This document shows, one piece after another, positions 909-49,545 of a DNA stretch of 64,000 nt; position 1 is the stretch's first letter, and each line of letters begins with the position of its first letter. This stretch comes from Clostridia bacterium (GTDB lineage Bacteria > Bacillota > Clostridia > Oscillospirales > CAG-272). The stretch lies in the NCBI GenBank assembly GCA_017556745.1, contig JAFYMF010000055.1:171-64170 (forward strand). Direction: 5' to 3'. The notes below the pieces were generated by a model. That model was given only the letters and a program-made list of their open reading frames with translations. It was not told the DNA's origin and made no database searches. The position numbers and the translations under genes are program-made.

Positions 909-3434
909 TTATTTACTGTCAAGCCAATTCTTTCCGATGAGGATCTCTATGTCAAGGGGAACAGACAGCTCTGCCGCACCCTCCATAGCTTCTCTGAGGA
1001 GCTCCGCCGCGCGGGGTGCATCCTTCTCTGAGGATTCGATGATTATCTCATCGTGTACCTGAAGTATGAGAGTTGCATCAAGGCTTTCTCTTTTCAGCGA
1101 CTCAACCACGCGGATCATAGCAATTTTGATTATATCGGCCGCAGACCCCTGAATGGGACTGTTCATCGCCACTCTTTCTCCGAAGCTGTAGGTGACCTTA
1201 TTCTTTGCCGCAAGCTCGGGAATATATCTTCTTCTGCCAAAGAGTGTAGTGGTATAACCGTTTTCTTTAGCACTCTCTATTGTGTTTCGGAGATACTCGT
1301 TTACCTTGGGATAGGTAGCGAGATATCCCTTTATATATTCATCCGCCTGCTTCTTTGTGATTCCCAGATCCTGAGCCAGAGAGAACGCGCCGATTCCGTA
1401 CACAATACCGAAATTGACCGCTTTTGCCCTCTTTCGCATTTCACCCGTTACCATTTCCTTGGGGATTCCGAAAACCTCGGATGCGGTGACTGTATGAATG
1501 TCAACTCCATCTCTGAATGCTGAAATCATTGTCTCGTCACCCGAGATATGTGCAAGAAGTCTCAGCTCTATCTGTGAGTAGTCGGCATCGATCAGTACTC
1601 TATCATCACTGCGAGGAATAAAGTACTTTCTCAGCTTTCTTCCAAGCTCGGTACGAACAGGTATATTCTGAAGATTAGGTTCAGCCGAGGAAATTCTGCC
1701 GGTTGCTGTTCCGGTCTGCTTGAATACCGTGTGTATACATCCGTCATCCTCTATTACCTTAAGAAGTCCGTCGCCGTAAGTTCCCCTGAGCTTTGCCACC
1801 TTGCGGTAGTCAAGAACGTCAGAAACTACCTCACTGTACGGTCTGAGTTTTTCAAGAACTTCAGCACCGGTAGAGTATCCGCTCTTGGTCTTTTTTCCTG
1901 CAGGAAGGCCAAGTCTTTCAAAAAGTACCTCTCCAAGCTGCTTTGGGGAATTGATATTGAACTCGCACCCTGCCTCGAAATATATCCTCTCGGTATATTC
2001 CCTTTCCATTGCCTCAAGTTCAAGGGAATATTCCCTGAGTCCTTCCTTGTCAACCGCAAAGCCCTCTATCTCCATATCAGCAAGCACGAAAGCAAACGGA
2101 AGCTCAATATTATAATAAAGTTCCTCTTGACCGCTCATAGCGAGCTTGTCACTCTGTGCTTTAAATATCTCATAAATATGTCTCGGTGAGTTTTCATCCT
2201 CCGATACCTCACCAAGGGTTGAAAGCAGTATACGCGGATAACTGTAGTTACCTTCACCGGAGCTGATCACGTATGCCGCAAGCATTATATCAAAGGCGCA
2301 GTTAGAATACTTTATACCCTTATCCGCAAGGAAGGAATATAGATTCTTACAGTCGCAGCACACGGTGCGTCTGTTCTCGTCCTCAAAGAGGAAAGCGATA
2401 TCCCGCCAATCGGAAACCGACACTTCAAGATTATCACCGTCCTCGGTAGCAACACGGCAAATACCGTTTTCTGTATCAAGAGTAACAGCATAGCGCTTAC
2501 CACTTGTTTTTTCATCCATAAGCACAGTTTCGACTTCGGTATATTCATTCACTGAAATCTTATTTGTGCTCTCTTCTAACTCAAAACGCTTAATAAAGGC
2601 ACCGAACTCAAGCTCACGGCAAAGAGAGAACATTTCTTCCCGGTTCATGCCATCGAATGGCAGATCGGAAAGAGTCACGCCGAGAGGCACATCGCAAACG
2701 ATCTTAGCGAGACGGCGGGAAAGAAATGCATTTTCACGTCCCTCGCTAAGCTTACGCTTTACAGAAGGGGTAAGAGAGGCAGTCTCATATCCTTCATATA
2801 TGTTTTCAAGGCCCTTAAACTCCCGAATAAGGGATAGTGCGGTCTTCTCACCGATTCCTGCAACACCGGGGATGTTATCCGATGAATCGCCCATAAGCGC
2901 CTTGACATCGACAAAGCAGTCGGGTGTTATGCCGTACTTTTCAAAAAATGCTTTTCCGTCGTAGGTCACGTAATCTGTATTGGTAGCAAGAAGCACGGTA
3001 GCACTGTCAGTTATAAGTTGAAGAGAGTCTCTGTCTCCGGTAACGATATAACTGTGAACGCCTTCTACTGTAGCTGCAGACGAGAGAGTACCGAGAATGT
3101 CGTCAGCCTCATACCCCTCTTTTTCAAGAACGGTAAGTCCAAGAGCCTTGCATGCCCTCTTTGCATAGGGAAGCTGCTCTGCAAGCTCCTCGGGCATACC
3201 GTGGCGGTTTGCCTTATACCCCTCATATTCAAGATGTCTGAAGGTGGGGGCACGCATATCAAATGCCACCGCCGCATAATCGGGGGACACGTCGGAAATA
3301 TACTTTGTGAGCATATTTATCATACCGTATACCGCATTGGTGTGAAGCCCCGCAGAGTTAGTCAGCTCTCTTATACCGTAGAAGGCTCTGTTGAGAATAC
3401 TGTTTCCGTCTATTACAAGGAGTTTTTTCATCAT
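909..3434 (-). CDS. polA: DNA polymerase I
   Basis: 5'-nuclease N-terminus (LLVIDGNSILNRAFY). Family A polymerase motifs DYSQIELR, RKRAKAVNFGIVYG and QVHDE. Start moved to ATGATG at 3434/3431 behind AAAGGA. Confidence 0.97.
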   Translation of the reverse strand: MMKKLLVIDGNSILNRAFYGIRELTNSAGLHTNAVYGMINMLTKYISDVSPDYAAVAFDMRAPTFRHLEYEGYKANRHGMPEELAEQLPYAKRACKALGLTVLEKEGYEADDILGTLSSAATVEGVHSYIVTGDRDSLQLITDSATVLLATNTDYVTYDGKAFFEKYGITPDCFVDVKALMGDSSDNIPGVAGIGEKTALSLIREFKGLENIYEGYETASLTPSVKRKLSEGRENAFLSRRLAKIVCDVPLGVTLSDLPFDGMNREEMFSLCRELEFGAFIKRFELEESTNKISVNEYTEVETVLMDEKTSGKRYAVTLDTENGICRVATEDGDNLEVSVSDWRDIAFLFEDENRRTVCCDCKNLYSFLADKGIKYSNCAFDIMLAAYVISSGEGNYSYPRILLSTLGEVSEDENSPRHIYEIFKAQSDKLAMSGQEELYYNIELPFAFVLADMEIEGFAVDKEGLREYSLELEAMEREYTERIYFEAGCEFNINSPKQLGEVLFERLGLPAGKKTKSGYSTGAEVLEKLRPYSEVVSDVLDYRKVAKLRGTYGDGLLKVIEDDGCIHTVFKQTGTATGRISSAEPNLQNIPVRTELGRKLRKYFIPRSDDRVLIDADYSQIELRLLAHISGDETMISAFRDGVDIHTVTASEVFGIPKEMVTGEMRKRAKAVNFGIVYGIGAFSLAQDLGITKKQADEYIKGYLATYPKVNEYLRNTIESAKENGYTTTLFGRRRYIPELAAKNKVTYSFGERVAMNSPIQGSAADIIKIAMIRVVESLKRESLDATLILQVHDEIIIESSEKDAPRAAELLREAMEGAAELSVPLDIEILIGKNWLDSK

Positions 3435-3508: not shown

Positions 3509-5011
3509 TCAGTTAAAGTAGGGATATTCGCCGGGATATCTGAGTTCCTTAGGAAGATTTACAGATATATCGGTGATACCAAGATACTTAAGGGTGTTGA
3601 AGAGAGTACGTCCAACGTGAGCAAAGCCAACGCCTGCGTGATGAGGATATCTCTTCTCAATAAGAACGTGACGGTAGAAACGAGCCATCTCGGGAACTGC
3701 GATAACCGCACGGCCGCCGAAGGAATTGGTAGGCATATCGAGAACCTCACCCTCTGCGATGTAGGAGATAAGCTTAGCATCAGCAGTAGACTGAAGTCTG
3801 AAGAGAGTAATATCGGAAGCCATGATCTCACCGTCAAGAGTACCGCGGGAAACGTTAGGCTCGGAATCGGGCTCAAGGTTTCTCTTCATGATCAGCTGAT
3901 ACTGCATCTTCTTGCCCTCCTTAAGCAGGCAAGCAGAGGTGTTTCCGCAGTGGAAGCCCATAAAGAGATCCTTTGCGGTGTAGTCGCCGACAACCTTTGC
4001 GTTTTCGCTGATAAGGTCTGCGGGAACGGTGTTGTTAATGTCAAGAAGAGTAACAGTGCTGTCGGTAACAACAGTGAGTATGTACTCGGTAAGTGCACCG
4101 TATATATCGGTCTCACAAGCAACGGGAATACCCTTTGCGGTGAGACGGGAGTTTACGTAACAGGGAACAAACTTGAACATAGTCTGAAATGCAGGCCAGC
4201 ACTTGTTAGCAAATGCAAAATACTTAGCCGCGCCAAGATTCTTCTCCGCCCAGTCAAGAAGAGTGATCTCAAACTGTGCAAGCTTAGGAAGGATACCGGG
4301 ATAGCAGTTACCGTTCTCGCCAAGCTCTGCTTCCATCTCCTTGATAACACCCTCAATACGAGGATCATTATCATGAGCCTGGAAAGCCTCAAGAAGATCA
4401 AGCTCACTGTTCTCCTGGATCTCAACACCGAGATCGTAGAGAGGAGCGATAGGAGCGTTACAAGCAAGGAAGTCATAGGGTCTGGGACCGAAAGTAAAGA
4501 TCTTAAGATTTGCAAGACCGTTCTTAACAGCCGCAACAGGAACATATTCCTTGATCATAGCTGCAACGTCAGCAGCACCGCCTACAGGATATTCGGGAAT
4601 ATAAGCCGCAAGCTTACGAAGGCCGAGGTTATAGGATGCATTGAGCATACCGCAGTATGCGTCACCACGTCCGTTGATAAGATCCTTGCCGCTCTCCTCA
4701 GCTGCCGCTACAAACATAACGGAATTGCCACGAACTGCGGTAAAACGCTGAGCAAGCATGGTCTCAGGGCCCTCGGGACCGAAGTTACCGAGGAACACAA
4801 CAAGAGCATTTACACCTGCTGCATTGATGTCATCAAGAGCCGCAAGAGCATCCTTCTCATTCTCAACTATAACCTTGCTCTCATATATATCAAGGCCCAT
4901 CTTCTCGCACTCAGCTATGACTGCGATTCTGCGCTTCTCAGAAAGAGTAGCTGGGAAACAGTCACGGCTTACCGCAACTATACCGAGTTTAACTACAGGG
5001 GTATTATTCAT
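3509..5011 (-). CDS. L-fucose/L-arabinose isomerase-like family protein (COG2407-like), function uncertain
   Basis: 500 aa. Overall resemblance, recognised by eye, to FucI-like sugar isomerase family proteins. ATG 5011 follows GGAG by 7 nt. Lies only 52 nt downstream of the rnfB stop, same strand. Confidence 0.55.
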   Translation of the reverse strand: MNNTPVVKLGIVAVSRDCFPATLSEKRRIAVIAECEKMGLDIYESKVIVENEKDALAALDDINAAGVNALVVFLGNFGPEGPETMLAQRFTAVRGNSVMFVAAAEESGKDLINGRGDAYCGMLNASYNLGLRKLAAYIPEYPVGGAADVAAMIKEYVPVAAVKNGLANLKIFTFGPRPYDFLACNAPIAPLYDLGVEIQENSELDLLEAFQAHDNDPRIEGVIKEMEAELGENGNCYPGILPKLAQFEITLLDWAEKNLGAAKYFAFANKCWPAFQTMFKFVPCYVNSRLTAKGIPVACETDIYGALTEYILTVVTDSTVTLLDINNTVPADLISENAKVVGDYTAKDLFMGFHCGNTSACLLKEGKKMQYQLIMKRNLEPDSEPNVSRGTLDGEIMASDITLFRLQSTADAKLISYIAEGEVLDMPTNSFGGRAVIAVPEMARFYRHVLIEKRYPHHAGVGFAHVGRTLFNTLKYLGITDISVNLPKELRYPGEYPYFN

Positions 5012-5063: not shown

Positions 5064-5930
5064 TTATCTGACTTTAAGATTTTCTTCAAAATCCTCGGGC
5101 TCAACCGTAAGACCGATCTTCTCCTGCTGATCCCTTGACCAGATTATGTGTCTGGGGCAGTTGTCAACACACTTACCGCAGTCAACACACTTTGAGTAAT
5201 TGATGGATGCGATAAAGCCATCCACCTTAATAGCACCTGACTCACATACTTTCTCACACTTGTGGCAACCAATACATCCAACGTCGCAGAATTGTCTGGT
5301 TATCGCCCCCTTGTCGACTGAGCAACAACCAACCCAGTGAGCACTGTCGTAAGGGATCAGACGGATTATATGTTTGGGACAAGAAGCTACACATACACCG
5401 CAACCGCGGCATTTGTCATAGTCTACTGCCGCTACACCGTTAACTATCTTTATAGCGTCAAAAACGCAGCTCTTTACACAAGAACCGAGTCCCACGCATC
5501 CGTTAGGACAAACCTTGTCACCGCCGCCCATACGTACAGCCGCACTACAGTCCTTTACACCCTCGTAATGATACTTCTTTTTAGCATTATTAAGGTGAGT
5601 ACCGGAGCACATTACCTGCGCACGAATTCGGATGGCCTTCTCAGGTGCAACACCCATTATCTCAGCTATTTCCGCTACCATTGCATCGCCGGCAACGGTA
5701 CATGCGTTTACCTTGGCTTCGCCCTTGACAATTGCCTCAGCGCATGCCTCACAACCGGTATAACCACAGCCACCGCAGTTGGCGCCGGGCATGATCTTGG
5801 TGATCTGCTTTATTCTCTTATCTACCTTGACGGCAAATTTTGCGCTGGCAAATGCAAGAATAAGACCCAGCACACCGCCGATAAACGCAATACACAGCGT
5901 GGGAATAATTATTTCACTAACAAATTCCAT
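5064..5930 (-). CDS. rnfB: Rnf electron transport complex subunit B (polyferredoxin)
   Basis: N-terminal TM helix, a CGGCGYTGC cluster motif and several 4Fe-4S ferredoxin motifs (CRGCGVCVASCP, CVDCGKCVDNCP). Last gene of the rnf order C-D-G-E-A-B. Confidence 0.9.
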   Translation of the reverse strand: MEFVSEIIIPTLCIAFIGGVLGLILAFASAKFAVKVDKRIKQITKIMPGANCGGCGYTGCEACAEAIVKGEAKVNACTVAGDAMVAEIAEIMGVAPEKAIRIRAQVMCSGTHLNNAKKKYHYEGVKDCSAAVRMGGGDKVCPNGCVGLGSCVKSCVFDAIKIVNGVAAVDYDKCRGCGVCVASCPKHIIRLIPYDSAHWVGCCSVDKGAITRQFCDVGCIGCHKCEKVCESGAIKVDGFIASINYSKCVDCGKCVDNCPRHIIWSRDQQEKIGLTVEPEDFEENLKVR

Positions 5931-9383: not shown

Positions 9384-10709
9384 TTATTTATTTTGTGCCT
9401 TAGCATCACGGATCTCGCTCTTGGCAACCTTTATGTACTGAACTATAGAAATATGCGCGGGACAGTTATAAGCACATGAACCGCATTCCACACAAGAAAG
9501 CGCCCCGTAGCTCTCTGCATTTTCCGGATCATGTTTCTTTGCGTAAGCCGCAATGTAGTTCGGCATCAGGTGCATAGGACAAGCGCGGACACATCTGCCG
9601 CATCTGATACAGCTCTCCGGCTGTTCGTATCTGCTATTCATCTTTTTTGAGAGAAAGAGTACCGCGGATGTTCCCTTGGTAACGGGAGACTCCACATCCC
9701 ACTGAGCCATACCCATCATAGGACCACCGTTTATTATTTTCTCGGGCTCTCTTATATAACCGCCGCAGAAATCGGCAATTGCACTGTATGGAGTACCGAT
9801 GGGAACAAGCAGGTTCTTGGGATTCTCAAGACAGTCACCTGATGCAGTAACTATTCTCTCTATGAGCGGCATTCCCTGAGAGAATGCTCTATATACCGCT
9901 GCACAGGTCTCAGCATTAAACACCACACATCCAACGTCAGCGGGAAGTTTACCCTGTGGGATCTCACGCCCAGTGATAGCATATATAAGCTGACGTTCAT
10001 CTCCCTGAGGATATTTGGTCTTCATGACACTGACCTTAAAAAGAGGATTTCCATCCACAGCATCATCAATCGAAAGTATACCGTCAAACTTGTTATTCTC
10101 CACCGCAATATGAGCAAGGCGGAGCTTAAGTGCTTTCATTATGATTTTTGCACCATTAAGCACCGACTCGGGATCTTCAAGGATCAATCTGTGGTTAGCT
10201 GTAATAAACGGCTCACATTCAGCGCAGTTGATAATCATCAGATCAACCTTATCGATGGCAGAACGGATCTTGGCATAGGTTGGGAATGTTGCTCCGCCCA
10301 TACCGGATATTCCCGCACGGCGGATAACCTCGATAATATCATCGGTAGTTGTTTCCTGAATGGGCTTTCTGAAAGGAACGATATCAGGAGACATCGTATT
10401 AAGATGATCGTTTTCAATAACGACATATTTATTCTTCTGTCCGGTCGGAGTAGGAACTTCTCTTATCTCGATAACCTTACCCGAAACGCTGGAATGAACC
10501 GGACAACCGAGGGCATTCTCCTCAACGTCACCGATCTTCTGTCCACGGGTTACAGCATCACCAACCTTTACTGTCGGAGTACACATTGCACCGATGTGCT
10601 GTGACAAAGGTATATACACTGTATCGGGAGCAGTCATTTTTTCAATAGGACTTTTGCTTGTATATTTATATTCTCTTACGTGAGTACCGCCTCTGAATGT
10701 AAATGCCAA
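9384..10709 (-). CDS. rnfC: Rnf complex subunit C
   Basis: C-terminal 2x[4Fe-4S] motifs CIRCGRCVRACP and CVECGSCAYNCP. N-terminus FRGGTHV. TTG start at 10709 lies 5 nt after AGAGGTGA. The upstream 38 codons of the ORF track look like leader sequence. Confidence 0.9.
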   Translation of the reverse strand: MAFTFRGGTHVREYKYTSKSPIEKMTAPDTVYIPLSQHIGAMCTPTVKVGDAVTRGQKIGDVEENALGCPVHSSVSGKVIEIREVPTPTGQKNKYVVIENDHLNTMSPDIVPFRKPIQETTTDDIIEVIRRAGISGMGGATFPTYAKIRSAIDKVDLMIINCAECEPFITANHRLILEDPESVLNGAKIIMKALKLRLAHIAVENNKFDGILSIDDAVDGNPLFKVSVMKTKYPQGDERQLIYAITGREIPQGKLPADVGCVVFNAETCAAVYRAFSQGMPLIERIVTASGDCLENPKNLLVPIGTPYSAIADFCGGYIREPEKIINGGPMMGMAQWDVESPVTKGTSAVLFLSKKMNSRYEQPESCIRCGRCVRACPMHLMPNYIAAYAKKHDPENAESYGALSCVECGSCAYNCPAHISIVQYIKVAKSEIRDAKAQNK

Positions 10710-10955: not shown

Positions 10956-11032
10956 GGCGGAATAGCTCAGTTGGCTAGAGCAATCGGTTCATACCCGATA
11001 GGTCGTGGGTTCAAGTCCAACTTCCGCTACCA
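10956..11032 (+). tRNA. tRNA-Met (anticodon CAT; a lysidine-modified tRNA-Ile2 cannot be excluded)
   Basis: Hand-folded cloverleaf: D stem GCTC/GAGC, anticodon stem ATCGG/CCGAT with loop TTCATAC, encoded CCA. Has a G1-U72 wobble and one G-A mismatch in the T stem. Confidence 0.8.
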
Positions 11033-11107
11033 GGCCCGTTGGTCAAGCGGCTAAGACACCGCCCTTTCACGGCGGTAACACGAGTTCGATTCTCGTACGG
11101 GTCACCA
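11033..11107 (+). tRNA. tRNA-Glu (anticodon TTC)
   Basis: GGCCCGTTGGTCAAGCGG...CCGCCCTTTCACGGCGG...GTTCGATTC...ACGGGTCACCA. Folds as a canonical cloverleaf with encoded CCA. Directly abuts tRNA-Met. Confidence 0.93.
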
Positions 11108-11150
11108 TAGAAAATGCCTCACGTTAGTGAGGCATTTTCTATGGTGACCC
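11099..11150 (+). terminator. terminator hairpin extended into a perfect 24-bp inverted repeat that includes the tRNA-Glu 3' end
   Basis: GGGTCACCATAGAAAATGCCTCAC-GTTA-GTGAGGCATTTTCTATGGTGACCC. The core GCCTCAC/GTGAGGC plus a T-rich tail acts as the terminator. Confidence 0.7.
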
Positions 11151-11297: not shown

Positions 11298-11522
11298 ATG
11301 CTAATAGGCTTTCCACCCTCTGCGTGTTGACAAAAATATTCCATATAAATGACGTTACTACAGACCAGATACAATTTTACTCTTTCGGTTCAAGCAAAAA
11401 TGTTTTCTGCATTTACGAATTCCAGCTTGAATATTATGACAAATCCGCAAATCCAAACAAACCATAATTACAAATGAGCAAAAGCGATCGACAGTCACCG
11501 CCCTCAACATCTTTTTAAAGAC

Positions 11523-11558
11523 AAAAAATGGTTCTGCCTTTCGGCAGAACCATTTTTT
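11523..11558. terminator. bidirectional terminator downstream of the zinc-ribbon membrane protein gene
   Basis: AAAAAATGGTTCTGCC-TTTC-GGCAGAACCATTTTTT. Confidence 0.8.
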
Positions 11559-11570
11559 GTCTTTTCGTTT

Positions 11571-25744: not shown

Positions 25745-25772
25745 AGAAATCACCTCACTTTTGCGTAATTTT

Positions 25773-25811
25773 GATGGGTTTTGGGTACACTTTCCCCCAC
25801 AATTACCCATG
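25773..25811 (-). promoter_or_regulatory. candidate MraZ operator (TGGGN direct repeats)
   Basis: Minus strand reads TGGGT-AATTG-TGGGG-GAAAG-TGTAC immediately downstream of the -10. The plus strand carries two further TGGGT. Confidence 0.5.
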
Positions 25812-25818
25812 TAACATA

Positions 25819-25847
25819 ATTATAAAGTATTTTTTTCAAAAAATCAA
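25819..25847 (-). promoter_or_regulatory. P_mra promoter of the dcw cluster
   Basis: TTGATT-17 nt-TATAAT on the minus strand, ~75 nt upstream of the mraZ GTG. Confidence 0.7.
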
Positions 25848-26036
25848 TAGGTAATCTTGTATTTCTAAAAAGTTTTTTAACAAAATTACGCATTATTATT
25901 AATTTTTTTACCATATTTCGTTAAATATAACATTTTAATACAAAAGGGTTATAAACAGAGCATGGAGATGTAATAATTTATTGACAGTGAATATTTGTTT
26001 TAATCTATAGATCGGGAGGAGTGAATTGCCATTGGT

Positions 26037-26128: not shown

Positions 26129-26326
26129 CCCTACCGCGTTCAAGCACATTTTGAAAAAACATCTCTAACCTCGTAGGGGCGACCTTTGGTCGTCCGTTTT
26201 AATTATATCTTTATCGCTCGACAATCGGGCGAACACAGTTCTCCCCTACGGGTGTGATAGGCTCTGTCGAATAAAATACGGAATTAAGCTCTAAACAATC
26301 CATACCGCGTTTGAGCACATTTTTGA
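26129..26326. repeat. 26-nt direct repeats (171-bp spacing) flanking a GC-rich compound palindrome
   Basis: CCCTACCGCGTTCAAGCACATTTTGA (26129) versus CCATACCGCGTTTGAGCACATTTTTGA (26300). Between them, outer stem CGTAGGGG (26172) / CCCCTACG (26243) encloses hairpins GGGCGACC-TTT-GGTCGTCC and GGGCGAAC-ACA-GTTCTCCC. Confidence 0.8.
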
Positions 26327-26328
26327 GG

Positions 26329-26652
26329 ATACATAAAACAAAGGAAAAAACTCCTTCCACCACCGAATTCGGAATTTCGAAAATTCGAATTCTTGTGGTC
26401 CCCCTCCCTCAGGAGGGAGGCTTGAATGCACATGTTATACTGCTATAATTCTTGAGTATTAGTGGCGCATTCCACAAGAATTACTTGGTTATTCGAAGAA
26501 CACCGTTTTGCTAACGCAAAAACGTAATTCTTCTTTAGTTAGGCTCCCTCCAAGAACATTGTTTACAATGTTTCGGGAGCTGTCGAGCGTTATTTGCGAA
26601 GCAAATATCAAGACTGGGTGAGTATATTTGGAATGATGAAACTACATGAAAC
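26329..26652 (-). repeat. single copy of the multi-hairpin repeat family seen at 31128-31809 (inverted genomic orientation)
   Basis: The reverse complement shares identical blocks AGCCTCCCTCCTGAGGGAGGGGGACCACAAGAATTC (36 nt, 26387-26422) and CCGAATTCGGTGGTGGAAGGAG (22 nt, 26351-26372). It also shares the TTTCAT...ACTC(A/C)CCCAGTC block, with equivalent but sequence-diverged hairpins. Confidence 0.85.
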
Positions 26653-26656
26653 AATG

Positions 26657-26727
26657 AAAAAAACTCCGCCTTATGAGCGGAGTTTTTTAGAAAAGATAAA
26701 AGCGGCTCACCCGAAGGTAAGCCGCTT
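26657..26727 (-). terminator. two tandem terminator hairpins downstream of the surface-protein gene
   Basis: ACTCCGC-CTTATGA-GCGGAGT flanked by A/T runs (26657-26688). AGCGGCTCACC-CGAA-GGTAAGCCGCT followed by a T-rich tract on the minus strand (26691-26727). Confidence 0.75.
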
Positions 26728-26760
26728 TATTATTTAATCATTTCTGATTATCAAGGCTAA

Positions 26761-29631
26761 TTATCTAACCTTCTTAGCAACTACTACGCCTGCAAGAGCA
26801 AGAGTAGCGATTACTGCGAAGCCAGCAACTGCAACGTCAGAGGTCTGAGCAGCAGGAGTCTTGTTGGGAGCCTTGGTGGTGTCTGCAGGAGTCTCGTTGT
26901 CTGCCTTAGCGGTAGTATCAGCGGGAGTCTCAGCAGCAGCCTTGTTTACATAGTCAACTTCGTAACCATGGATAGCAAACTGGTTGTCAATACCCTCAAG
27001 AGTAGAAGTGAAGGTACCAACGTTAACGATCATACCCTTGTTAACAACCTTACCGTTTACGTTGTCAAGCTTGCCCTCAACGCGTACGTCATAACCGTAC
27101 TCGTTGTAGAAGGTACCGTTGTTTACAAACTCACCCTTGATGAGAGTGTAAGCTACGAATGCCTTGTAAGGATCGAAGGTGTAGAAGGTCTTGTCGTTAA
27201 GATACTCCATAACACCATCCATACCGGTTACCTTCTCGAAGTTAGCGGAATCGAAGTTCTTATAAGTACCATTGTTTACAATAGTAGCACCCTTTGCAAC
27301 AACAACATCGTTGAAGTTGTAGAAGGTACCGGACTTGATCTCGATCTCGCCCTTGTTATCAACAAGACCACCGTTAACAATCATAGAATTATCAACTACG
27401 ATCTTACCGGAGTTGTCAAGGAGCCAGCTGCTATAATTGAATGCAGTAAGAGCCTTGGAAAAAGGATCCTTAGTCTGAATGTAAGCAACGAAGAAAGAAG
27501 AATCAGTAATATTGAGAACAGCATCCTTAGCGTTATAGAACTTCTCAAAGCCCATACGACCGGTCTTGGTAATGTTCATAGTACCGTTGTTGAAGATACG
27601 TCCATCATAAACAACGAACTCAGAATCCTTATTATGGCCGGGGCAGTTCTCACAACCGTCGTAAACAACAACCTTAGACTCGATGGTGTTGTAGGTTGCA
27701 TTCTCAGGAATGATTATCTTTTTATCCTCATCATCGGGATGCTCATCCTCAGTTGCCCAGTTGTCTCTGTGGTTAGTGAAGGACTTGAAAGTAACAGTCA
27801 TAGTACCGTTGTTAACGATCTTACCGCCGCCGTTCTGGAAGAAGTAACCGGAAAGATTCATAGTACCGTCGTTGGTGATACCAAGAGGATATACAGTAAG
27901 GTTGGTCTTACCAGCAACAGTCTGCTCGGTGTATGCACCTTCTCTGTTTCTGATAAGGAGTTTGGACTCGAGAGTAGAATCCTTATTGGTAGCAGATGCG
28001 TAATCGAAAGTACCTATGTTCTTAAGAAGACCGGCAATCTCAACGTTAACACCGGTACCGGTAACGGATACAGAACCAGCGTTAGTGAAAGTTCCGCGGA
28101 AAACAAGTGCATCGCCACCATTTGCACTATCAATAGCAATAGTACCAAGGTTTCTGTGCTGTGCATATACAGGTGCTCTGAAGTCATCATCACCCTCGTC
28201 AATATAAGCAACATAGGTAGTAGCAGCAAACTTAAGAGTAGGAGCAACCTTGGTCTCTACTCCGGTAGCATTGTTGTTAAACACTGCAGTCTCACCAATG
28301 ATAGAACCGGAACCGGTATTATTAAATACCTTATTAACGGTAAGAGTACCGCCAAGCTTTACTTCACCACTGTTGGTAAAGCCACACGCAGCAGTAAGGT
28401 TAGCTGCAAAAGTCTCGATCTTACCATTGTTGATAAGATCAGGACACATATTAGCATCGTAATCCTGATAGTATCTGAGACGATAACCAACATAATCCTC
28501 AAAAGTACCAACAAGCTTTACAGTACTTGTGTAGTTAATAGGACCAGCACTTGTAACCTTAATAGTACCTTCGTTGAAGAAGTCAGCACTGTTGGACACC
28601 TCAAAACGAGCCTTTGAATTATTCCAGCTAGCAACAGGTGCAAAGGTCCAAGTTACATTACCGTTGAACTCAAGAAGACCGTAGTTGTACACATTAGCGC
28701 TATAACCGAGGTTAAGCTCGTAGTTACGGGTAGCACCGTCAACACCGGTAGCAAACACGGTCTCAATAGTACCGTAGTTGTAGAAGTTCTTAGCTGCGGT
28801 AGCAGCATCAGCAAAACGAACGTTTGCCCAGTAAGACGTGGTTGCCTTGTAAGGATCCTGGATGTGACCCTTAGCGTCAACATACGCACCGTCACAAACC
28901 TTGGTGTAGTCGGTCTTGCCGTTTACGATAGTGATCTTACCGTAGTTAGCGATCGCACCGATAACGTAGATGTGACCGTCAGCCTCAAGAACGAGGTTGG
29001 CACCCTCTTCGATCTTCTCGTCAAGATTGATAACGATAGGAGTTACGCAATCAACGATGAAGTTGTCCTCGAGAGAGAAGTTTGCGAAGGTGTAGTAACC
29101 GTCTTTGTTAGCAGTGATCTCTACTTCCTTAGCAGTACTGGTAGCACTGTCATAAACAGTTCTGGCAACATAGAGCTGAGGAATCTTGTTGTCGTGAAGA
29201 TCCTTATCCTCGATCATGTAGTCTTTCTTAACAGTGATCTCAATTGCAAGATCATAAGTACCGTCAGCGTTAGGAACAGCAGAAATGATGTCGTACTCAA
29301 CGCCGGGGTTCTGCTCAAGTCTGAACATCTCAACAGGAGCAGTGTAGTGAGAAATAGTGATGGGCTCGGTTGCGGGAGAAGAAAGAACCCACTTACCGTC
29401 AGCGTTGGGAGCGATCTCGGTGCCATCATCAAGAACGAGGATGAGGCCGGTGCCGTCAACGCCATTGATGGTGAAACTGTTAATGGTGTAAGTAATAACG
29501 CCATCAGCAACAGAAACACCCATGTTAGCTACCATACCGTCAGGTCCATTGAAGTGACCAGCAGCAGAAGCAGCTACTGCCATAACAGTGATCATAAGCA
29601 CTGCTACAACAAGTAAAAATGCCTTTTTCAT
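26761..29631 (-). CDS. large secreted cell-surface protein with NxG-type beta-helix-like repeats and C-terminal membrane anchor
   Basis: Signal peptide MKKAFLLVVAVLMITVMAVAASAAG. At least 18 copies of the motif [FILV]xNxG[TKSE][IMFL]. C-terminus ETPADTT x2, AAQTSD, a 21-aa hydrophobic stretch, then KKVR. ATG 29631 lies behind GGAGGAA. Confidence 0.85.
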   Translation of the reverse strand: MKKAFLLVVAVLMITVMAVAASAAGHFNGPDGMVANMGVSVADGVITYTINSFTINGVDGTGLILVLDDGTEIAPNADGKWVLSSPATEPITISHYTAPVEMFRLEQNPGVEYDIISAVPNADGTYDLAIEITVKKDYMIEDKDLHDNKIPQLYVARTVYDSATSTAKEVEITANKDGYYTFANFSLEDNFIVDCVTPIVINLDEKIEEGANLVLEADGHIYVIGAIANYGKITIVNGKTDYTKVCDGAYVDAKGHIQDPYKATTSYWANVRFADAATAAKNFYNYGTIETVFATGVDGATRNYELNLGYSANVYNYGLLEFNGNVTWTFAPVASWNNSKARFEVSNSADFFNEGTIKVTSAGPINYTSTVKLVGTFEDYVGYRLRYYQDYDANMCPDLINNGKIETFAANLTAACGFTNSGEVKLGGTLTVNKVFNNTGSGSIIGETAVFNNNATGVETKVAPTLKFAATTYVAYIDEGDDDFRAPVYAQHRNLGTIAIDSANGGDALVFRGTFTNAGSVSVTGTGVNVEIAGLLKNIGTFDYASATNKDSTLESKLLIRNREGAYTEQTVAGKTNLTVYPLGITNDGTMNLSGYFFQNGGGKIVNNGTMTVTFKSFTNHRDNWATEDEHPDDEDKKIIIPENATYNTIESKVVVYDGCENCPGHNKDSEFVVYDGRIFNNGTMNITKTGRMGFEKFYNAKDAVLNITDSSFFVAYIQTKDPFSKALTAFNYSSWLLDNSGKIVVDNSMIVNGGLVDNKGEIEIKSGTFYNFNDVVVAKGATIVNNGTYKNFDSANFEKVTGMDGVMEYLNDKTFYTFDPYKAFVAYTLIKGEFVNNGTFYNEYGYDVRVEGKLDNVNGKVVNKGMIVNVGTFTSTLEGIDNQFAIHGYEVDYVNKAAAETPADTTAKADNETPADTTKAPNKTPAAQTSDVAVAGFAVIATLALAGVVVAKKVR

Positions 29632-29667
29632 GTTTGAATTCCTCCTGAAAATATTTTTTACGATGTA

Positions 29668-29696
29668 ATTATAGCACAGGGTTTTCAAAAATGCAA
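29668..29696 (-). promoter_or_regulatory. strong promoter of the surface-protein gene
   Basis: TTGCAT-17 nt-TATAAT with TGC directly upstream of the -10 (extended -10), minus strand. Leader ~30 nt. Confidence 0.7.
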
Positions 29697-30392: not shown

Positions 30393-31076
30393 ATGAATAT
30401 CAAATCTCCCTGTTTATGTAACCGTTTATCGGTTGTTTCTGAATTCGTTCGTCAAGGAGCTGTTGTTGCCGACATCGGAACAGATCATGCTCTTCTTCCG
30501 ATATATCTTCTAAGGACGGGAAAAGCAAAAAAAGCCATTGCTGCAGATATTGCAGAGGGTCCCTTAGCCGCCGCTGCGAAAAACATTTCTGCATACGGCC
30601 TTTCAGATAAAATAACAACCGTACTTTCAGACGGTCTTGACAAAATTGCCCCCTTCTCCCCCACAGACATAACCATCTGCGGTATGGGAGGTGAAACTGT
30701 TATTGATATCATATCAAAAGCTCCCTGGGTCAAGGATCCGGATATACGCTTGATATGTCAGGCACAGAGCTTTCTCCCCGTACTGAGAGAATATCTCCTC
30801 AAAGAAGGATTTTATATAGCAGATGAAGCAATTTGCCGTGACCGTGGAAAGTTTTACGTATGTATAGTTGCGGAATACGGTCAAAGTGAAGATGACTACA
30901 GTGAAACAGAGCTGCAAATCGGACGGCGTAATATTGAAAAATCAGAACCGATCCTCAAGGATTATGCGTCGCACCTTATAAATATACTTGAAAAAAAATC
31001 CGACGGATTAAAAAAAGCAGGAATAGACGCAAGTGATACCGATAAGCTGACAGAAGCACTAAAAAAGTATTTATAG
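30393..31076 (+). CDS. trmK: tRNA (adenine22-N1)-methyltransferase
   Basis: VADIGTDHALLPIYL and GMGGE motifs of the TrmK/YqfN family, 227 aa. Confidence 0.88.
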   Translation: MNIKSPCLCNRLSVVSEFVRQGAVVADIGTDHALLPIYLLRTGKAKKAIAADIAEGPLAAAAKNISAYGLSDKITTVLSDGLDKIAPFSPTDITICGMGGETVIDIISKAPWVKDPDIRLICQAQSFLPVLREYLLKEGFYIADEAICRDRGKFYVCIVAEYGQSEDDYSETELQIGRRNIEKSEPILKDYASHLINILEKKSDGLKKAGIDASDTDKLTEALKKYL

Positions 31077-31127
31077 TTATCTAATATAGCGTTAGATAAA
31101 AAGCTAAATTTATTTAAAACAAGCTTT

Positions 31128-31477
31128 GCTGACAGTCCTCTCAAGAGGGGGCCTAACTTAATAATATATTACTATAGGAAAATTTTCGTTTTCGCTTTTG
31201 CGAAACAAGTGTCACGAAGGCACCTGAGAAAATTTTCGCAGAACGGGCAATCTTTGACTTAGCTTTTTCCGGCGCCCGTTCAGCCTCCCTCCTGAGGGAG
31301 GGGGACCACAAGAATTCCGAAATTCGAAGAATTTCCGAAATTCGGAGAATTTCCGAATTCGAAGAATTTCCGAATTCGGTGGTGGAAGGAGTCGGTTTCC
31401 CGTTCCTTTGTTTCATATAACTTCATCATTTCAATCATACTCCCCCAGTCATCGGGACATTAGCTCCGCAATGTCCT
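31128..31477 (+). repeat. multi-hairpin repeat unit A (350 nt)
   Basis: Starts with boundary motif GCTGACAGTCCTCTCAAGAGGGGGCCT. Hairpins: TTTCGC/GCGAAA, AGGTG/CACCT, GAACGGGC/GCCCGTTC, CCTCCCT/AGGGAGG and GGACATT/AATGTCC. Contains four 17-nt mini-hairpin repeats. Confidence 0.9.
31312..31377 (+). repeat. tandem 17-18 nt mini-repeats GAATT(T)CCGAA(A)TTC, 4 copies
   Basis: GAATTCCGAAATTC-GAA-GAATTTCCGAAATTC-GGA-GAATTTCCGAATTC-GAA-GAATTTCCGAATTC. Each copy can fold as GAATTT-CCG-AAATTC. Several GAATTC sites. Confidence 0.9.
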
Positions 31478-31809
31478 GCTGCCAGCCCCCTCAAGAGGGG
31501 GCCTGACTTGATAATATATTACTATAGGAAAATTTTCGTTTTCGCTTTTGCGAAACAGGTGTCACGAAGGCACCTGAGAAAATTTTCGCAGAACGGGCAA
31601 TCTTTGACTTAGCTTTTTCCGGCGCCCGTTCAGCCTCCCTCCTGAGGGAGGGGGACCACAAGAATTCTGAAATTCGGAGAATTTCCGAATTCGGAGAATT
31701 TCCGAATTCGGTGGTGGAAGGAGTCGGATCCCCGTTACTTTACTTCATATAACTTCATAATTTCAACCATACTCCCCCAGTCATCGGAACATTAGCTCCG
31801 CAATGTCCT
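31478..31809 (+). repeat. multi-hairpin repeat unit B (332 nt)
   Basis: Roughly 95% identical to unit A by eye. Has three instead of four mini-repeats (31662-31709). Starts with GCTGCCAGCCCCCTCAAGAGGGGGCCT. Confidence 0.9.
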
Positions 31810-31836
31810 GCTGCCAGCCCCCTCGAGATGGGGCCA
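31810..31836 (+). repeat. third copy of the 27-nt boundary motif (degenerate)
   Basis: GCTGCCAGCCCCCTCGAGATGGGGCCA, immediately upstream of the DUF559 gene. Confidence 0.8.
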
Positions 31837-31869
31837 ATATAGTCCGATATTACACAAAAACCGAACTTA

Positions 31870-32268
31870 ATGTTTTTTAAGGCGGTGGTCAAAATGCCTA
31901 TTCACTACAATAGTAATAATTTACCTCTTGCAAAAGCACTAAGAAAAGAAGCAACAAAAGAAGAAAATCACTTATGGTATGATTTTCTATCGAAACATAA
32001 TCCACGATTTCAACGTCAAAAGCCTATTGATAATTTCATAGCTGATTTTTATTGTCACAAAGCAAAGTTAGTAATCGAAATAGATGGCTCTCAACATTTT
32101 ACAAAAGTCGGTAAACAAAAAGATCATTTCCGTACGGAGATACTTGAGGGATACGATCTTAAAGTCATAAGGTTTAACAATCTGCAAATACGGGAAAACT
32201 TCCCCGGGGTTTGTATGTATATTGATAAAGTCGTAAAATCAATATGTAACACAGAGGACAACTCGTGA
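31870..32268 (+). CDS. DUF559 endonuclease-domain protein (Vsr/restriction-endonuclease-like fold)
   Basis: LRKEATKEENHLWYDFL...FQRQKPIDNFIADFYCHKAKLVIEIDGSQH...LKVIRFNNLQI matches the DUF559 pattern. An alternative start at ATG 31894 is possible. Confidence 0.8.
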   Translation: MFFKAVVKMPIHYNSNNLPLAKALRKEATKEENHLWYDFLSKHNPRFQRQKPIDNFIADFYCHKAKLVIEIDGSQHFTKVGKQKDHFRTEILEGYDLKVIRFNNLQIRENFPGVCMYIDKVVKSICNTEDNS

Positions 32269-32297
32269 TTTTTTGTTTCACTCCCACAGCCAGCTTC

Positions 32298-32324
32298 GCT
32301 GCCAGCCCTCTCAAGAGGGGGCCT
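32298..32324 (+). repeat. fourth copy of the 27-nt boundary motif
   Basis: GCTGCCAGCCCTCTCAAGAGGGGGCCT, 29 nt after the DUF559 stop and 37 nt before the nif3 start. Confidence 0.85.
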
Positions 32325-32361
32325 AAAGTAAGAACCATGTTGAAGAAAAGGAGGCAAACAG

Positions 32362-33123
32362 GTGAATATAAGAGAATTCGCAAAAAAGATGGATGAATTG
32401 CTGCCGTTGTCGCTCAGATGTCCGTGGGACAACGATGGTCTGCTCTGTGCATCAAAGCCTGACAGAGAAATAAAAAAAGTTCTTGCTACTCTTGATGTAA
32501 CAGAGGATGCAGTCACCCGTGCAATCGATGGCGGTTTTGATATTATCATTTCTCACCATCCATTCATCTTTAAGCCTCTTAGCTCCGTAGTTGCAGACAG
32601 CCTTTCCGAAAAAGATCTTTTCAGACTCATCCAAAACGGTATCGGTGTACTGAGCTACCACACCAGACTTGATGCCGCAGAAGGTGGTGTTGCCGACAGA
32701 CTCTCCTCTCTCATTAACCTTAGAGACGTAGTATCTGCAGGAGAGATCGGAGAAAACATTCTGCGACTCGGTTATAGCGACATAAACGATCTAAAAGAGT
32801 TTTCGACAGGTATCAAACAGGCCTTGAATTCACCTGTTGTAACAGTTGGAGACAGCGGACTACCCGTTCATAAGGTTGCCGTTTGCCCCGGTGACGGCAA
32901 GGACTTTGTAAAGATAGCCTCCTCTCTCGGCGCTGACACATACGTCACCGGCAGATTGTCATACAATATTATGTGCGATGCGAAAAAGATGGGAATAAAT
33001 CTTATTGAAGCAGGACATTATTTCACAGAGAAACATATAACCGAATATTTTGCCAATGTATGCCACGATCTCTGTGGCGCACAGACAGAAATATTCGAAT
33101 CATTTAATATAGATATAATATAA
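32362..33123 (+). CDS. Nif3-like dinuclear metal center protein (YqfO family)
   Basis: GTG start behind GGAGG. Motifs ISHHPFIF and IEAGHYFTE are typical of the NIF3 family. 253 aa. Confidence 0.85.
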   Translation: MNIREFAKKMDELLPLSLRCPWDNDGLLCASKPDREIKKVLATLDVTEDAVTRAIDGGFDIIISHHPFIFKPLSSVVADSLSEKDLFRLIQNGIGVLSYHTRLDAAEGGVADRLSSLINLRDVVSAGEIGENILRLGYSDINDLKEFSTGIKQALNSPVVTVGDSGLPVHKVAVCPGDGKDFVKIASSLGADTYVTGRLSYNIMCDAKKMGINLIEAGHYFTEKHITEYFANVCHDLCGAQTEIFESFNIDII

Positions 33124-49363: not shown

Positions 49364-49372
49364 ATCAATACA

Positions 49373-49545
49373 TTATTCTTCGGGGCAAGGTGAGAATCCT
49401 TACCGGCAGTAACAGTCTGCGACCCGCATTTGCGGCTGAACGGGTGTGATTCCCGTACCGACGGTCATAGTCCGGATGAGAGAAGAAGTATGCGTTTCTC
49501 CGTATATTTATGCCCCAAGACCGTTATGTCTTGGGGCTTCTTTTT
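49373..49545 (+). promoter_or_regulatory. FMN riboswitch (RFN element) with intrinsic terminator
   Basis: TTCTTCGGGGCAAGGTGAGAATCCTTACCGGCAGT...GTGTGATTCCCGTACCGACGGTCATAGTCCGGATGAGAGAAGAAG matches conserved RFN blocks. Terminator GCCCCAAGAC-loop-GTCTTGGGGC plus a T-run at 49512-49545. Confidence 0.9.

Follow-up and report, generated by a model that had tools for sequence, protein, structure and literature searches.

The intergenic element C (26329-26652), which lies between a surface-protein gene and the dcw promoter in the 64-kb stretch of Clostridia DNA analysed here (the window), is probably an ORF-less and partly decayed copy of a modular palindromic repeat, whose modules regularly flank small genes for DUF559 (Vsr-like) endonucleases, and form their 3' appendix, in Clostridia of the rumen and gut. 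The repeat family appears to be selfish or mobile, or at least highly recombinogenic, DNA, and by analogy would be comparable to REPINs or MITEs. An initial annotation had described C as the third member of a repeat family otherwise represented by units A and B, and C does belong to the same family as these units, but they do not form a three-member set; the family is a widespread modular repeat attached to DUF559 genes.

Comparison of C with units A and B

Both blocks that had been described as identical in the three copies were recovered as exact matches, one of 36 nt (AGCCTCCCTCCTGAGGGAGGGGGACCACAAGAATTC) at 26387-26422(-), 31282-31317(+) and 31632-31667(+), and one of 22 nt (CCGAATTCGGTGGTGGAAGGAG) at 26351-26372(-), 31370-31391(+) and 31702-31723(+), with none of either expected in shuffled sequences. 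The annotated collinearity was borne out by a MAFFT alignment of the reverse complement of C with A and B (~330 columns), in which pairwise identity was 89% between A and B and 66% between B and C, and the block common to all three, TTTCAT..CATCATT..ATACTC(A/C)CCCAGTC, fell inside the collinear alignment. In this formal alignment the similarity extended well past both GC-rich blocks and, since it was collinear over such a length, the relationship is not one of GC-rich blocks alone. The three hairpins with differing arms that had been placed at matching positions (ATTTGC/GCAAAT, GCTCCC..GGGAGC and CGTTTTTGC/GCAAAACG) were all present in the predicted fold of C, which had a z-score of -5.2 (a second fold z-score was also strong, at -5.7).

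The central ~80 nt, previously regarded as unrelated, could indeed not be aligned with A and B, but they occupy the same architectural slot, and a long hairpin is found there in both versions (GAATGC..GCATTC in C, as against GAACGGGC..GCCCGTTC in A and B). Relatives at three other loci (L036, L039 and L044) bridge the two versions. C follows the same periodic arrangement as A and B, but is slightly longer than the single period first proposed; an imperfect 23-nt direct repeat is present at both ends (26332-26354 and 26645-26667, 20/23 matches), so that C comprises ~1.1 periods. As this repeat consists of element sequence (tail plus linker), it may reflect the 1.1-period tandem structure rather than a target duplication.

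Module architecture and distribution

The architecture of relatives at four other loci indicated that the repeat unit is a module of ~46 nt. It opens with hairpin HP, formed by a pyrimidine arm and a purine arm around a loop, continues with a smaller, variable hairpin (hp2), in which GAA or GCA loops are frequent, and closes with an 8-nt purine tail. One of these loci (L001) carries a short version, with AGCCTCCCTC-TTA-GAGGGAGG, then the hairpin GGGACCAC..GTGG and then GGAAGGAG; two (L004 and L005) carry a ~210-nt element consisting of a module, a linker and the same module inverted; and the fourth (L006) carries a solo module with a different small hairpin. Composites, in which two modules in inverted orientation are separated by a linker of 40-90 nt, follow DUF559 stop codons and also occur alone, as in L004, L005 and units A and B of the window. 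Each of A and B consists of a composite (5'-type module, 45-nt linker and 3'-type module) and a 127-nt spacer, and in C the order is 3'-type module, spacer and 5'-type module, with partial linkers at both ends (Table 1). The C spacer is itself a multi-copy repeat piece, with a contig depth of 10-17x baseline in rumen metagenomes.

A covariance model of the module (R1), trained on nine modules that all came from other organisms, gave seven matches in the 64-kb window, all of them in C, A or B or beside the DUF559 gene at 31894-32268. The 3'-type module of C scored 13.5 bits, against 24-39 bits for the other copies. An additional hairpin (AACATTGT/ACAATGTT) splits its GCTCCC..GGGAGC hairpin, hp2 reads ATTTGC-GAA-GCAAAT, and the tail has mutated to TGGGTGAGT, this part of the element being partly decayed, against the earlier view of function rather than decay.

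Table 1. Modules of the repeat family and neighbouring features in the window. R1, covariance model of the module; its E-values are rough, the model being home-built.
Feature	Positions	Strand	Evidence or remarks
Conserved mraZ upstream block	25745-25947	-	Sister-strain alignment
P_mra-like promoter, TTGATT-17-TATAAT	25847-25819	-	Sequence pattern
C, 5'-type module	26350-26422	-	Exact blocks; R1 31.3 bits, E 9e-7
C 5'-type module, purine tail GGAAGGAGT	26350-26358	-	Sequence
C 5'-type module, hairpin HP1 CCTCCCTC/GAGGGAGG	26403-26420	-	Sequence
C 5'-type module, second hairpin GGGACCAC..GTGGT	within 26350-26422	-	Lengthened by GAATTC-containing short repeats
C spacer, hairpins CGTTTTTGC/GCAAAACG and GAATGC..GCATTC	26423-26540	-	Fold; relatives L036, L039, L044
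C, 3'-type module (inverted, degenerate)	26541-26623	+	R1 13.5 bits, E 0.22; fold
C linker (TTTCAT..CATCATT block), ending in right copy of 23-nt repeat (26645-26667)	26624-26667	-	Sequence; alignment A1
Two terminator-like hairpins 3' of 975-aa surface-protein gene	26728-26699 and 26688-26658	-	First one alone kept in sister strains
Solo hairpin CAGTCCTCTCAAGAGGGGGCCT, remnant of 3'-type module, opening the A/B array after trmK	31133-31154	+	Repeat family D4; sequence
Spacer piece, first copy	31155-31281	+	Same piece as 31505-31631
Unit A, 5'-type module	31282-31392	+	R1 27.9 bits, E 9e-6
Unit A, 3'-type module: hairpins GCCCCCTC/GAGGGGGC and GGACATT/AATGTCC, tail TGGGGGAGT	31439-31504	-	R1 31.2 bits
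A-B spacer, hairpins TTTCGC/GCGAAA, GGTG..CACC and GAACGGGC..GCCCGTTC	31505-31631	+	Sequence, repeats
Unit B, 5'-type module	31632-31724	+	R1 29.5 bits
Unit B, 3'-type module, slightly degenerate	31771-31836	-	R1 24.1 bits
DUF559 gene, 124 aa (start as called in public assemblies)	31894-32268	+	Pfam PF04480, E 4e-27
3'-type module directly 3' of DUF559 stop codon	32280-32324	-	R1 38.7 bits, E 5e-9

A scan of the genome collection with a 21-mer of the block recovered a single relative (L001), indicating that the exact sequence variant is rare, though the architecture is common. Two true relatives (L004 and L005) were found in metagenomes using a gapped pattern; two other matches to this pattern (L002 and L003) lay inside a eukaryotic glycine-rich gene and were attributed to chance. 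The plasmid collection gave no match in a distant blastn search with A and B, and the 21-mer had no matches (0) in viral contigs, where a looser hairpin pattern together with a common module variant detected solo modules only (L006, L042 and L043), with no DUF559 gene nearby. Searches of Rfam with C, A and B returned nothing at the gathering threshold, and a permissive threshold gave chance-level matches in terminators only. A coding reading of A and B was rejected, as C does not preserve their short minus-strand ORFs (52-87 aa) and the frame is shifted by the 17-18-nt repeats.

Covariation and the mirror-repeat tail

Among the 52 R1 hits (44 distinct), 89% of stem cells were paired, compared to 75% in shuffled and ~50% in slid controls, the stem alignment having been fitted to R1 and so being biased toward pairing. 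Both stems covary, with compensatory double changes in 12 of the 14 stem pairs, and the variety of hp2 is evident in the raw sequences (GTCAGC/GCTGAC, CACGC/GCGTG, GGCTGC/GCAGCC, CCCGCC/GGCGGG, ATTTGC/GCAAAT and GGACATT/AATGTCC).

The 8-nt tail proved to be an in-register mirror copy of the purine arm of HP. Over 24 distinct arm/tail combinations, 165 of 192 mirror positions matched, compared to 138.6 +/- 3.8 when tails were shuffled among modules (0/10,000 shuffles), and variant arms are accompanied by correspondingly mirrored tails, such as GAGGGGGC with TGGGGGAG (A and B of the window), GAGGAAGG with GGAAGGAG (L020) and GGGAGAGC with TGAGAGGG (L028). The alternative that the tail is a direct repeat of the purine arm, able to pair with the pyrimidine arm, did no better than chance and worse than the mirror arrangement. 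The module thus unites on a single strand the three segments (pyrimidine arm, purine arm and mirror purine tail) that a putative intramolecular triplex of the purine-motif type would require. On the module strand, G-T wobbles outnumber A-C mismatches (17 vs 3), a weak hint that this strand is the one that folds.

Mirror repeats that form intramolecular triplexes are known as H-DNA, and the modules resemble these in having a homopurine arm and a mirror homopurine tail beside a matching pyrimidine arm. They differ in that the three segments lie on one strand, are joined through a hairpin connector and are part of a dispersed repeat, and the predicted structure is derived from sequence alone.

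Association with DUF559 genes

The DUF559 protein of the window has a Vsr-like PD-(D/E)XK fold and matches an 'endonuclease-like protein' of known structure (PDB 3HRL, E 1e-12), and the catalytic-type residues D..E-x-D..H are invariant in seven DUF559 homologues. A homologue search with this protein found 5071 sequences. As the gene in the window is bracketed by the family hairpin, the loci of seven further homologues (68-78% identical) were examined. In all eight independent loci (the window, the L014 group, L020, L024, L028, L029, L030 and L032), which were partly chosen by the pattern itself, modules lay within a few hundred nt of the DUF559 ORF or overlapped its end, and none were found elsewhere in the 8-10 kb flanks.

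The connection extends into the reading frame, as the 36-nt block resembles the 3' end of many DUF559 ORFs. At one locus (L024) the end of the ORF reads GCCTCCCTCCGAGAGGGAGGGGGACCGCGATAGCGGTGGAGGGAG, which is almost the 36-nt block of the window plus the tail, and is followed by a linker and an inverted module; the same composite lies behind the DUF559 stop codon at four others (L028, L029, L030 and L032). C-terminal tails of the ..ASLREGGG type are translated modules, and were present in 30 of the 120 best homologues (of 5071). At the other end of the gene, the 5'-type module of L020 stops 5 nt before the DUF559 start codon, so that its tail (GGAAGGAG) would serve as the ribosome-binding site. 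The upstream host gene was co-oriented with DUF559 in all eight loci, at a distance of 0-110 nt if intervening module units are discounted, such units being present between host gene and DUF559 in the window and the L014-L018 loci.

Given that the module both flanks DUF559 genes and forms their 3' end, A, B, C and the L004 and L005 elements look like ORF-less versions of the 3' appendix. Modules far from any DUF559 gene ('orphans') are represented by C, L001, L004-L006, L042 and L043, and tblastn searches near the orphan composites found no DUF559 remnant. None of the transposase Pfam families matches the sole associated ORF, that of DUF559, and to our knowledge no transposase or homing activity has been demonstrated for DUF559 proteins.

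The tail 5 nt before the DUF559 start in L020, the placement of composites directly after stop codons, and the presence of units 3' of host genes in the same orientation would also fit a role at the RNA level, in which modules stabilise the 3' end of the upstream mRNA or terminate it, like REPs in E. coli, and act as a translational switch for DUF559, with the tail GGAAGGAG as Shine-Dalgarno sequence. We consider this unlikely, because many modules are orphans far from any DUF559 gene, copy number shifts between strains, which argues against a tuned function, and the mirror-repeat tail has no obvious use in a simple stabiliser. Modules also lack U-tracts and, unlike intrinsic terminators, do not combine a GC hairpin with a run of U/T; the terminator-like sites at 26658-26728 lie outside the modules.

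Turnover, probable insertion and copy number

Composites and single modules undergo tandem amplification and are shuffled with other repeat pieces, so that their number and arrangement differ between close strains. A 57-nt module upstream of the same DUF559 gene was present in one (L015), two (L018), three (L016/L017) or four (L014) copies in different strains; the 350-nt units occur twice in the window and in L010, and once in L007 (a real difference or assembly collapse); and L032 has two 165-nt composite units. In a sister species (L044, TrmK 74% identical) DUF559 again lies between trmK and nif3, but directly after trmK, and two 292-nt units follow 3' of it, so that DUF559 is on the other side of the repeats compared to the window. 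Beyond these units, still at trmK-nif3, is a piece in which both the spacer end and the module belong to the C type rather than the A/B type.

At some loci the assembly of modules, DUF559 and modules is flanked by direct duplications of host sequence (L028, 35 nt; L030, 41 nt; L014-L018, 12-15 nt), and in each case the duplicated sequence is the last part of the gene upstream and runs to the stop codon. Clear host duplications were seen in only three of the eight DUF559 loci. These duplications, from which alone insertion would be deduced, may represent an insertion signature, and we know of no transposase class that their length and variability (12-41 nt) would fit. There were no empty sites among the retrieved loci, every related trmK-nif3 and fucosidase locus being occupied, including that of the sister species. 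DUF559 at trmK-nif3 has apparently been inherited vertically between species, a pattern equally compatible with domestication and with selfish behaviour.

Evidence of multiple copies came from six DNA metagenome runs, in which contigs stop within the elements, leaving loose ends of many kinds, and depth over the modules was 4-17x that of the flanks, an excess that may stem partly from other taxa. Within DUF559 itself, contig depth reached up to ~20-fold in one run, and in four further metagenomes, the assemblies of which were shattered around C, no allele lacking C was seen. The host, an uncultured rumen or gut Clostridia bacterium, is seen in bovine-gut metagenomes. One relative (L008) has a different upstream context, which was put down to chimeric assembly at the module.

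A, B and C share the 36-nt and 22-nt blocks exactly, compared to 66% identity overall, which suggests gene conversion between copies within the species, as hp2 at this place is different in the sister species, although the exact conservation of the 5'-type module in the three copies could instead reflect selection. Local tandem duplication and gene conversion are also the processes that would be expected if A, B and C were passive debris, that is, solo 3' ends of decayed or deleted DUF559 genes that have never moved in trans. The homology of the 36-nt block to DUF559 ORF ends, the frequency of tandem arrays and the decayed 3'-type module of C all agree with such an origin, but it appears improbable: orphan composites are found at unrelated loci with no DUF559 remnant nearby by tblastn, the C-type spacer and module occur at two different loci in two species, and the excess metagenome depth and many junctions point to many sites. 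Plain decay would, in addition, erase the covariation that is seen in both stems and the tail.

Genomic setting and the dcw promoter

On the minus strand the order is surface-protein gene, two terminator-like hairpins, C, a GTAG palindrome pair, a P_mra-like promoter, mraZ, rsmH, ftsL and a PBP gene, which confirms the annotated position of C between the surface-protein terminators and the dcw promoter (Table 1). The surface protein (975 aa, 26761-29688) has no Pfam domain. Genuine GTAG-headed REP pairs adjoin C (26130-26330, with a headed element at 26165-26260) and constitute a separate family. Units A and B lie between trmK (30393-31076) and the DUF559 gene, which is followed by nif3, rimM and trmD, and there are no terminator-like sites between trmK and nif3 (31050-32400).

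Sister-strain dcw loci were found via MraZ homologues (94% and 90% identical) and aligned with the window (alignment A3). All that they share with it here is the first terminator of the surface gene and ~200 nt 5' of mraZ, so that C is not conserved at the dcw promoter; conservation upstream of mraZ ends ~385 nt short of C. In place of C, two loci (L033 and L034) have a composite that belongs to the family but differs in sequence and order (R1 matches at 3157-3202 and 3262-3309), and others (L036 to L040) have GTAG palindromes and a spacer-type piece with no module. Since it is replaced by different mosaics in sister strains, C is not a conserved part of P_mra control, and on sequence comparison it is best described as one mosaic in a hypervariable repeat 'junkyard' between the surface-protein terminators and the conserved P_mra block.

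Co-orientation of the copies with their flanking genes had been noted, but this involved only two loci, the element itself consists of inverted module pairs, and relatives (L001 and L004) occur in either orientation relative to their neighbours. The earlier argument, that divergence which preserves structure implies function, is correct as to the divergence, which is real and spans a much larger family, but no host function at P_mra is supported; structural constraint in an element that is not conserved at P_mra points to a property of the repeat itself, such as propagation or recognition by a partner protein. That A, B and C act as a structured regulatory RNA (sRNA or cis element), transcribed together with neighbouring genes, and that C modulates surface-gene read-through or P_mra, is very improbable. 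In its favour, folds are strong (z -5.2 and -5.7), stems covary, and A and B are probably transcribed within an operon, as no terminator separates trmK from nif3. Against it, no Rfam family matched even under permissive settings, two terminator-like hairpins precede C, the distance from C to the P_mra -35 element downstream is ~480 nt, the promoter block is retained in sister strains whereas C is not, promoter-like sites do not recur at equivalent positions in A, B and C, and both module orientations are present inside one unit. Three metatranscriptome runs had contigs over the surface-protein gene of a related strain and none over C, a result that is uninformative rather than negative.

Relationship to known repeat systems

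Among the closest systems are REP/REPIN sequences with their RAYT gene, and the associated BIME mosaics (Nunvar 2010, PMC2817692; Bertels & Rainey 2011, PMC3116915). REPs are palindromes of ~20-40 nt with a conserved GT(A/G)G head, and the RAYT partner is a Y1 (IS200-like) transposase flanked by two inverted repeats (PMC2817692). The present modules are likewise short extragenic palindromes with compensatory stem changes; they form inverted doublets with a spacer and mosaic clusters of alternating orientation (L004, L005 and A/B of the window; L024, L028-L030 and L032), and a partner nuclease gene is flanked by the repeats. They are unlike REPs in that none of the 52 module matches is GTAG-headed, all beginning with AG(C/G)C or TGGC, and in carrying a second hairpin and the mirror-repeat purine tail. 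The flanked gene is a PD-(D/E)XK Vsr-like DUF559 (PF04480) in all eight loci rather than an IS200-like Y1 and, unlike RAYT, looks multi-copy. REPs reach >100 copies per genome, and for the present family two loci are found in the 64 kb of the window. The sole Y1_Tnp match, a faint one, is to an unrelated ORF of L015 at a distance of 1.3 kb.

MITEs, such as Correia elements, RUP, BOX and bcr1, are ORF-less, have terminal inverted repeats and short target duplications of fixed length, and derive from a transposase parent. Elements of the present family are similar in size (100-350 nt), lack an ORF, are intergenic and vary in presence or arrangement between strains, and terminal inverted repeats are found, with AGCCTCCCTC..GAGGGAGG at both ends of the L004 and L005 composites. 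In contrast to MITEs, the ends are structured modules rather than plain inverted repeats, target duplications are 12-15, 35 or 41 nt or absent, and no DDE transposase parent was found, the sole associated ORF being DUF559.

Free-standing homing endonuclease genes include a Vsr-like EDxHD type, exemplified by I-Bth0305I, and DUF559 resembles these as a small PD-(D/E)XK/Vsr-fold nuclease gene, without a promoter of its own, co-oriented between conserved host genes. This likeness lies in fold, residues and gene setting. Homing genes are marked by occupied and empty alleles of one site, the empty one being cleaved, and all alleles retrieved here are occupied. We know of no homing genes with palindromic module arrays or ORF-less derivatives. 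Literature searches covering DUF559 and repeats, selfish genes of the Vsr-like type and clostridial REPs yielded no account of a DUF559-repeat association. By analogy, then, the element is one that would work like REP/RAYT and MITEs in outline, without the GTAG head and Y1 transposase of the former or the short target duplication of fixed length and transposase parent of the latter.

Proposed origin and significance

In the reading of C as an ORF-less copy of a DUF559-associated repeat, the modules would be cis sites, and they could be driven either by a nuclease of the DUF559 family or by the host's own replication and recombination at the hairpins; that the nuclease may mobilise them is suggested by the association alone. 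Effects of C on neighbouring genes (termination, insulation or RNA stability) would then be incidental. A more specific model, which is tentative and which we hold to be doubtful as a whole, is that DUF559 genes and their modules are an undescribed class of selfish element in Clostridia, in which a promoterless Vsr-like gene lodges behind a host stop codon and duplicates 12-41 nt of the gene end, while the modules fold as single strands into a hairpin and purine-motif triple helix, with hp2 as connector, are acted on by the nuclease or the replication machinery, and spread in ORF-less form, A, B and C being examples.

For the locus itself, a tempting regulatory story for the dcw promoter is unsupported and has been removed. 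More generally, metagenome assemblies of rumen Clostridia are broken up by these repeats: all runs examined have contigs that end within them, and in at least one public contig a module coincides with an apparent chimeric join. The mirror-repeat tail would allow an inexpensive and concrete biophysical test of whether a natural foldback triplex forms. The DUF559 (domain of unknown function) family is very large and, if its link with structured repeats holds, that link, insertion immediately 3' of host stop codons accompanied by long target duplications, and the ORF-less derivatives would together suggest a role for the family that can be tested, as a selfish or domesticated nuclease possessing cis sites of its own, in parallel to RAYT and REPIN.

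Module structure and the short repeat in hp2

Modules are pieces of about 46 nt in which a hairpin with a pyrimidine and a purine arm is followed by a small variable hairpin (hp2) and a purine tail. Across the module matches of the alignment A7, this tail was an in-register mirror of the hairpin's purine arm, a relation that is compatible with a foldback triplex, and the hp2 loops were often GCGAAGC- or GCGCAGC-like. In 5'-type modules of units A and B and of copy C, which lies ahead of the mraZ promoter, hp2 was extended by a palindromic tandem repeat of 17-18 nt containing GAATTC, whose copy number falls from approximately 4 in A to 3 in B and to 1.5 in C. In other contigs, 48 nt were skipped or fewer copies were found (L013). 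The repeat shifts the reading frame, and is evolving fast. The good promoter-like site inside C is not retained by the C-type copy that the sister species carries (L044).

Features of the window and of related DUF559 loci
Feature	Position	Strand	Sequence or score	Remarks
hp2 extension of 5'-type module by short tandem repeat	window 31318-31369 (A), 31668-31701 (B), 26373-26386 (C)
Promoter-like site, good	window 26422-26449	+	TTGAAT-16-TG-TATAAT	inside C, directed away from mraZ
REPIN-like pair of GTAG-headed palindromes	window 26130-26330		GTAGGGGCGACC..GGTCGTCC + inverted GGGCGAAC..GTTCTCCCCTAC
Host-derived duplication pair	L028 3865-3899 / 4511-4545			flanks modules + DUF559 + modules
Host-derived duplication pair	L030 3958-3998 / 4529-4569			flanks modules + DUF559 + modules
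Host-derived duplication pair	L014 4743-4754 / 5477-5488			flanks modules + DUF559 + modules
tRNA-Met and tRNA-Glu genes	window 10956-11107
Two perfect inverted repeats, 22-24 nt	window 11099-11150 and 11517-11564			just downstream of the tRNA genes; likely terminators
FMN riboswitch	window 49372-49491		105.6 bits

Neighbourhood of C

The GTAG palindrome pair beside C had on both sides a direct repeat of 22-23 nt, ACCGCGTT(C/T)(A/G)AGCACATTTT(T)GA, and contig depth over the pair reached 70-80 times baseline in rumen metagenomes. Similar palindromes adjoin modules at two loci of orphan modules (L001 and L042). A 166-aa ORF about 1.3 kb downstream of the DUF559 unit of L015 (6747-7247), which may be a partner of these palindromes, gave a faint Pfam match to Y1_Tnp (IS200/RAYT-like); its counterparts in L014, L016 and L019 were broken into two ORFs. 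The 975-aa ORF at window 26761-29688 contained internal repeats, and a Pfam search of it returned no domain. Its product is probably a surface protein that is expressed at a high level, because a related strain's version was recovered in long contigs (depth 13-46) from three metatranscriptomes.

DUF559 units

The duplications flanking three DUF559 units repeat the 3' end of the host gene that lies upstream, over 12-41 nt and as far as its stop codon, and we know of no transposition mechanism that matches this length and variability. A public contig (L008, approximately position 9745) fuses an unrelated coding region straight onto the middle of a module (..ggacCTGAGGGAGGGGGACCAC), and this junction is probably an assembly chimera due to the repeat. 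Over the interior of the window's DUF559 gene (31926-32087), contig depth exceeded that of the flanks in four metagenome runs, from slightly in one to about 20 times in X5, and many divergent junctions were found there in the same runs, which together suggest that the sampled communities carry many paralogous DUF559 genes.
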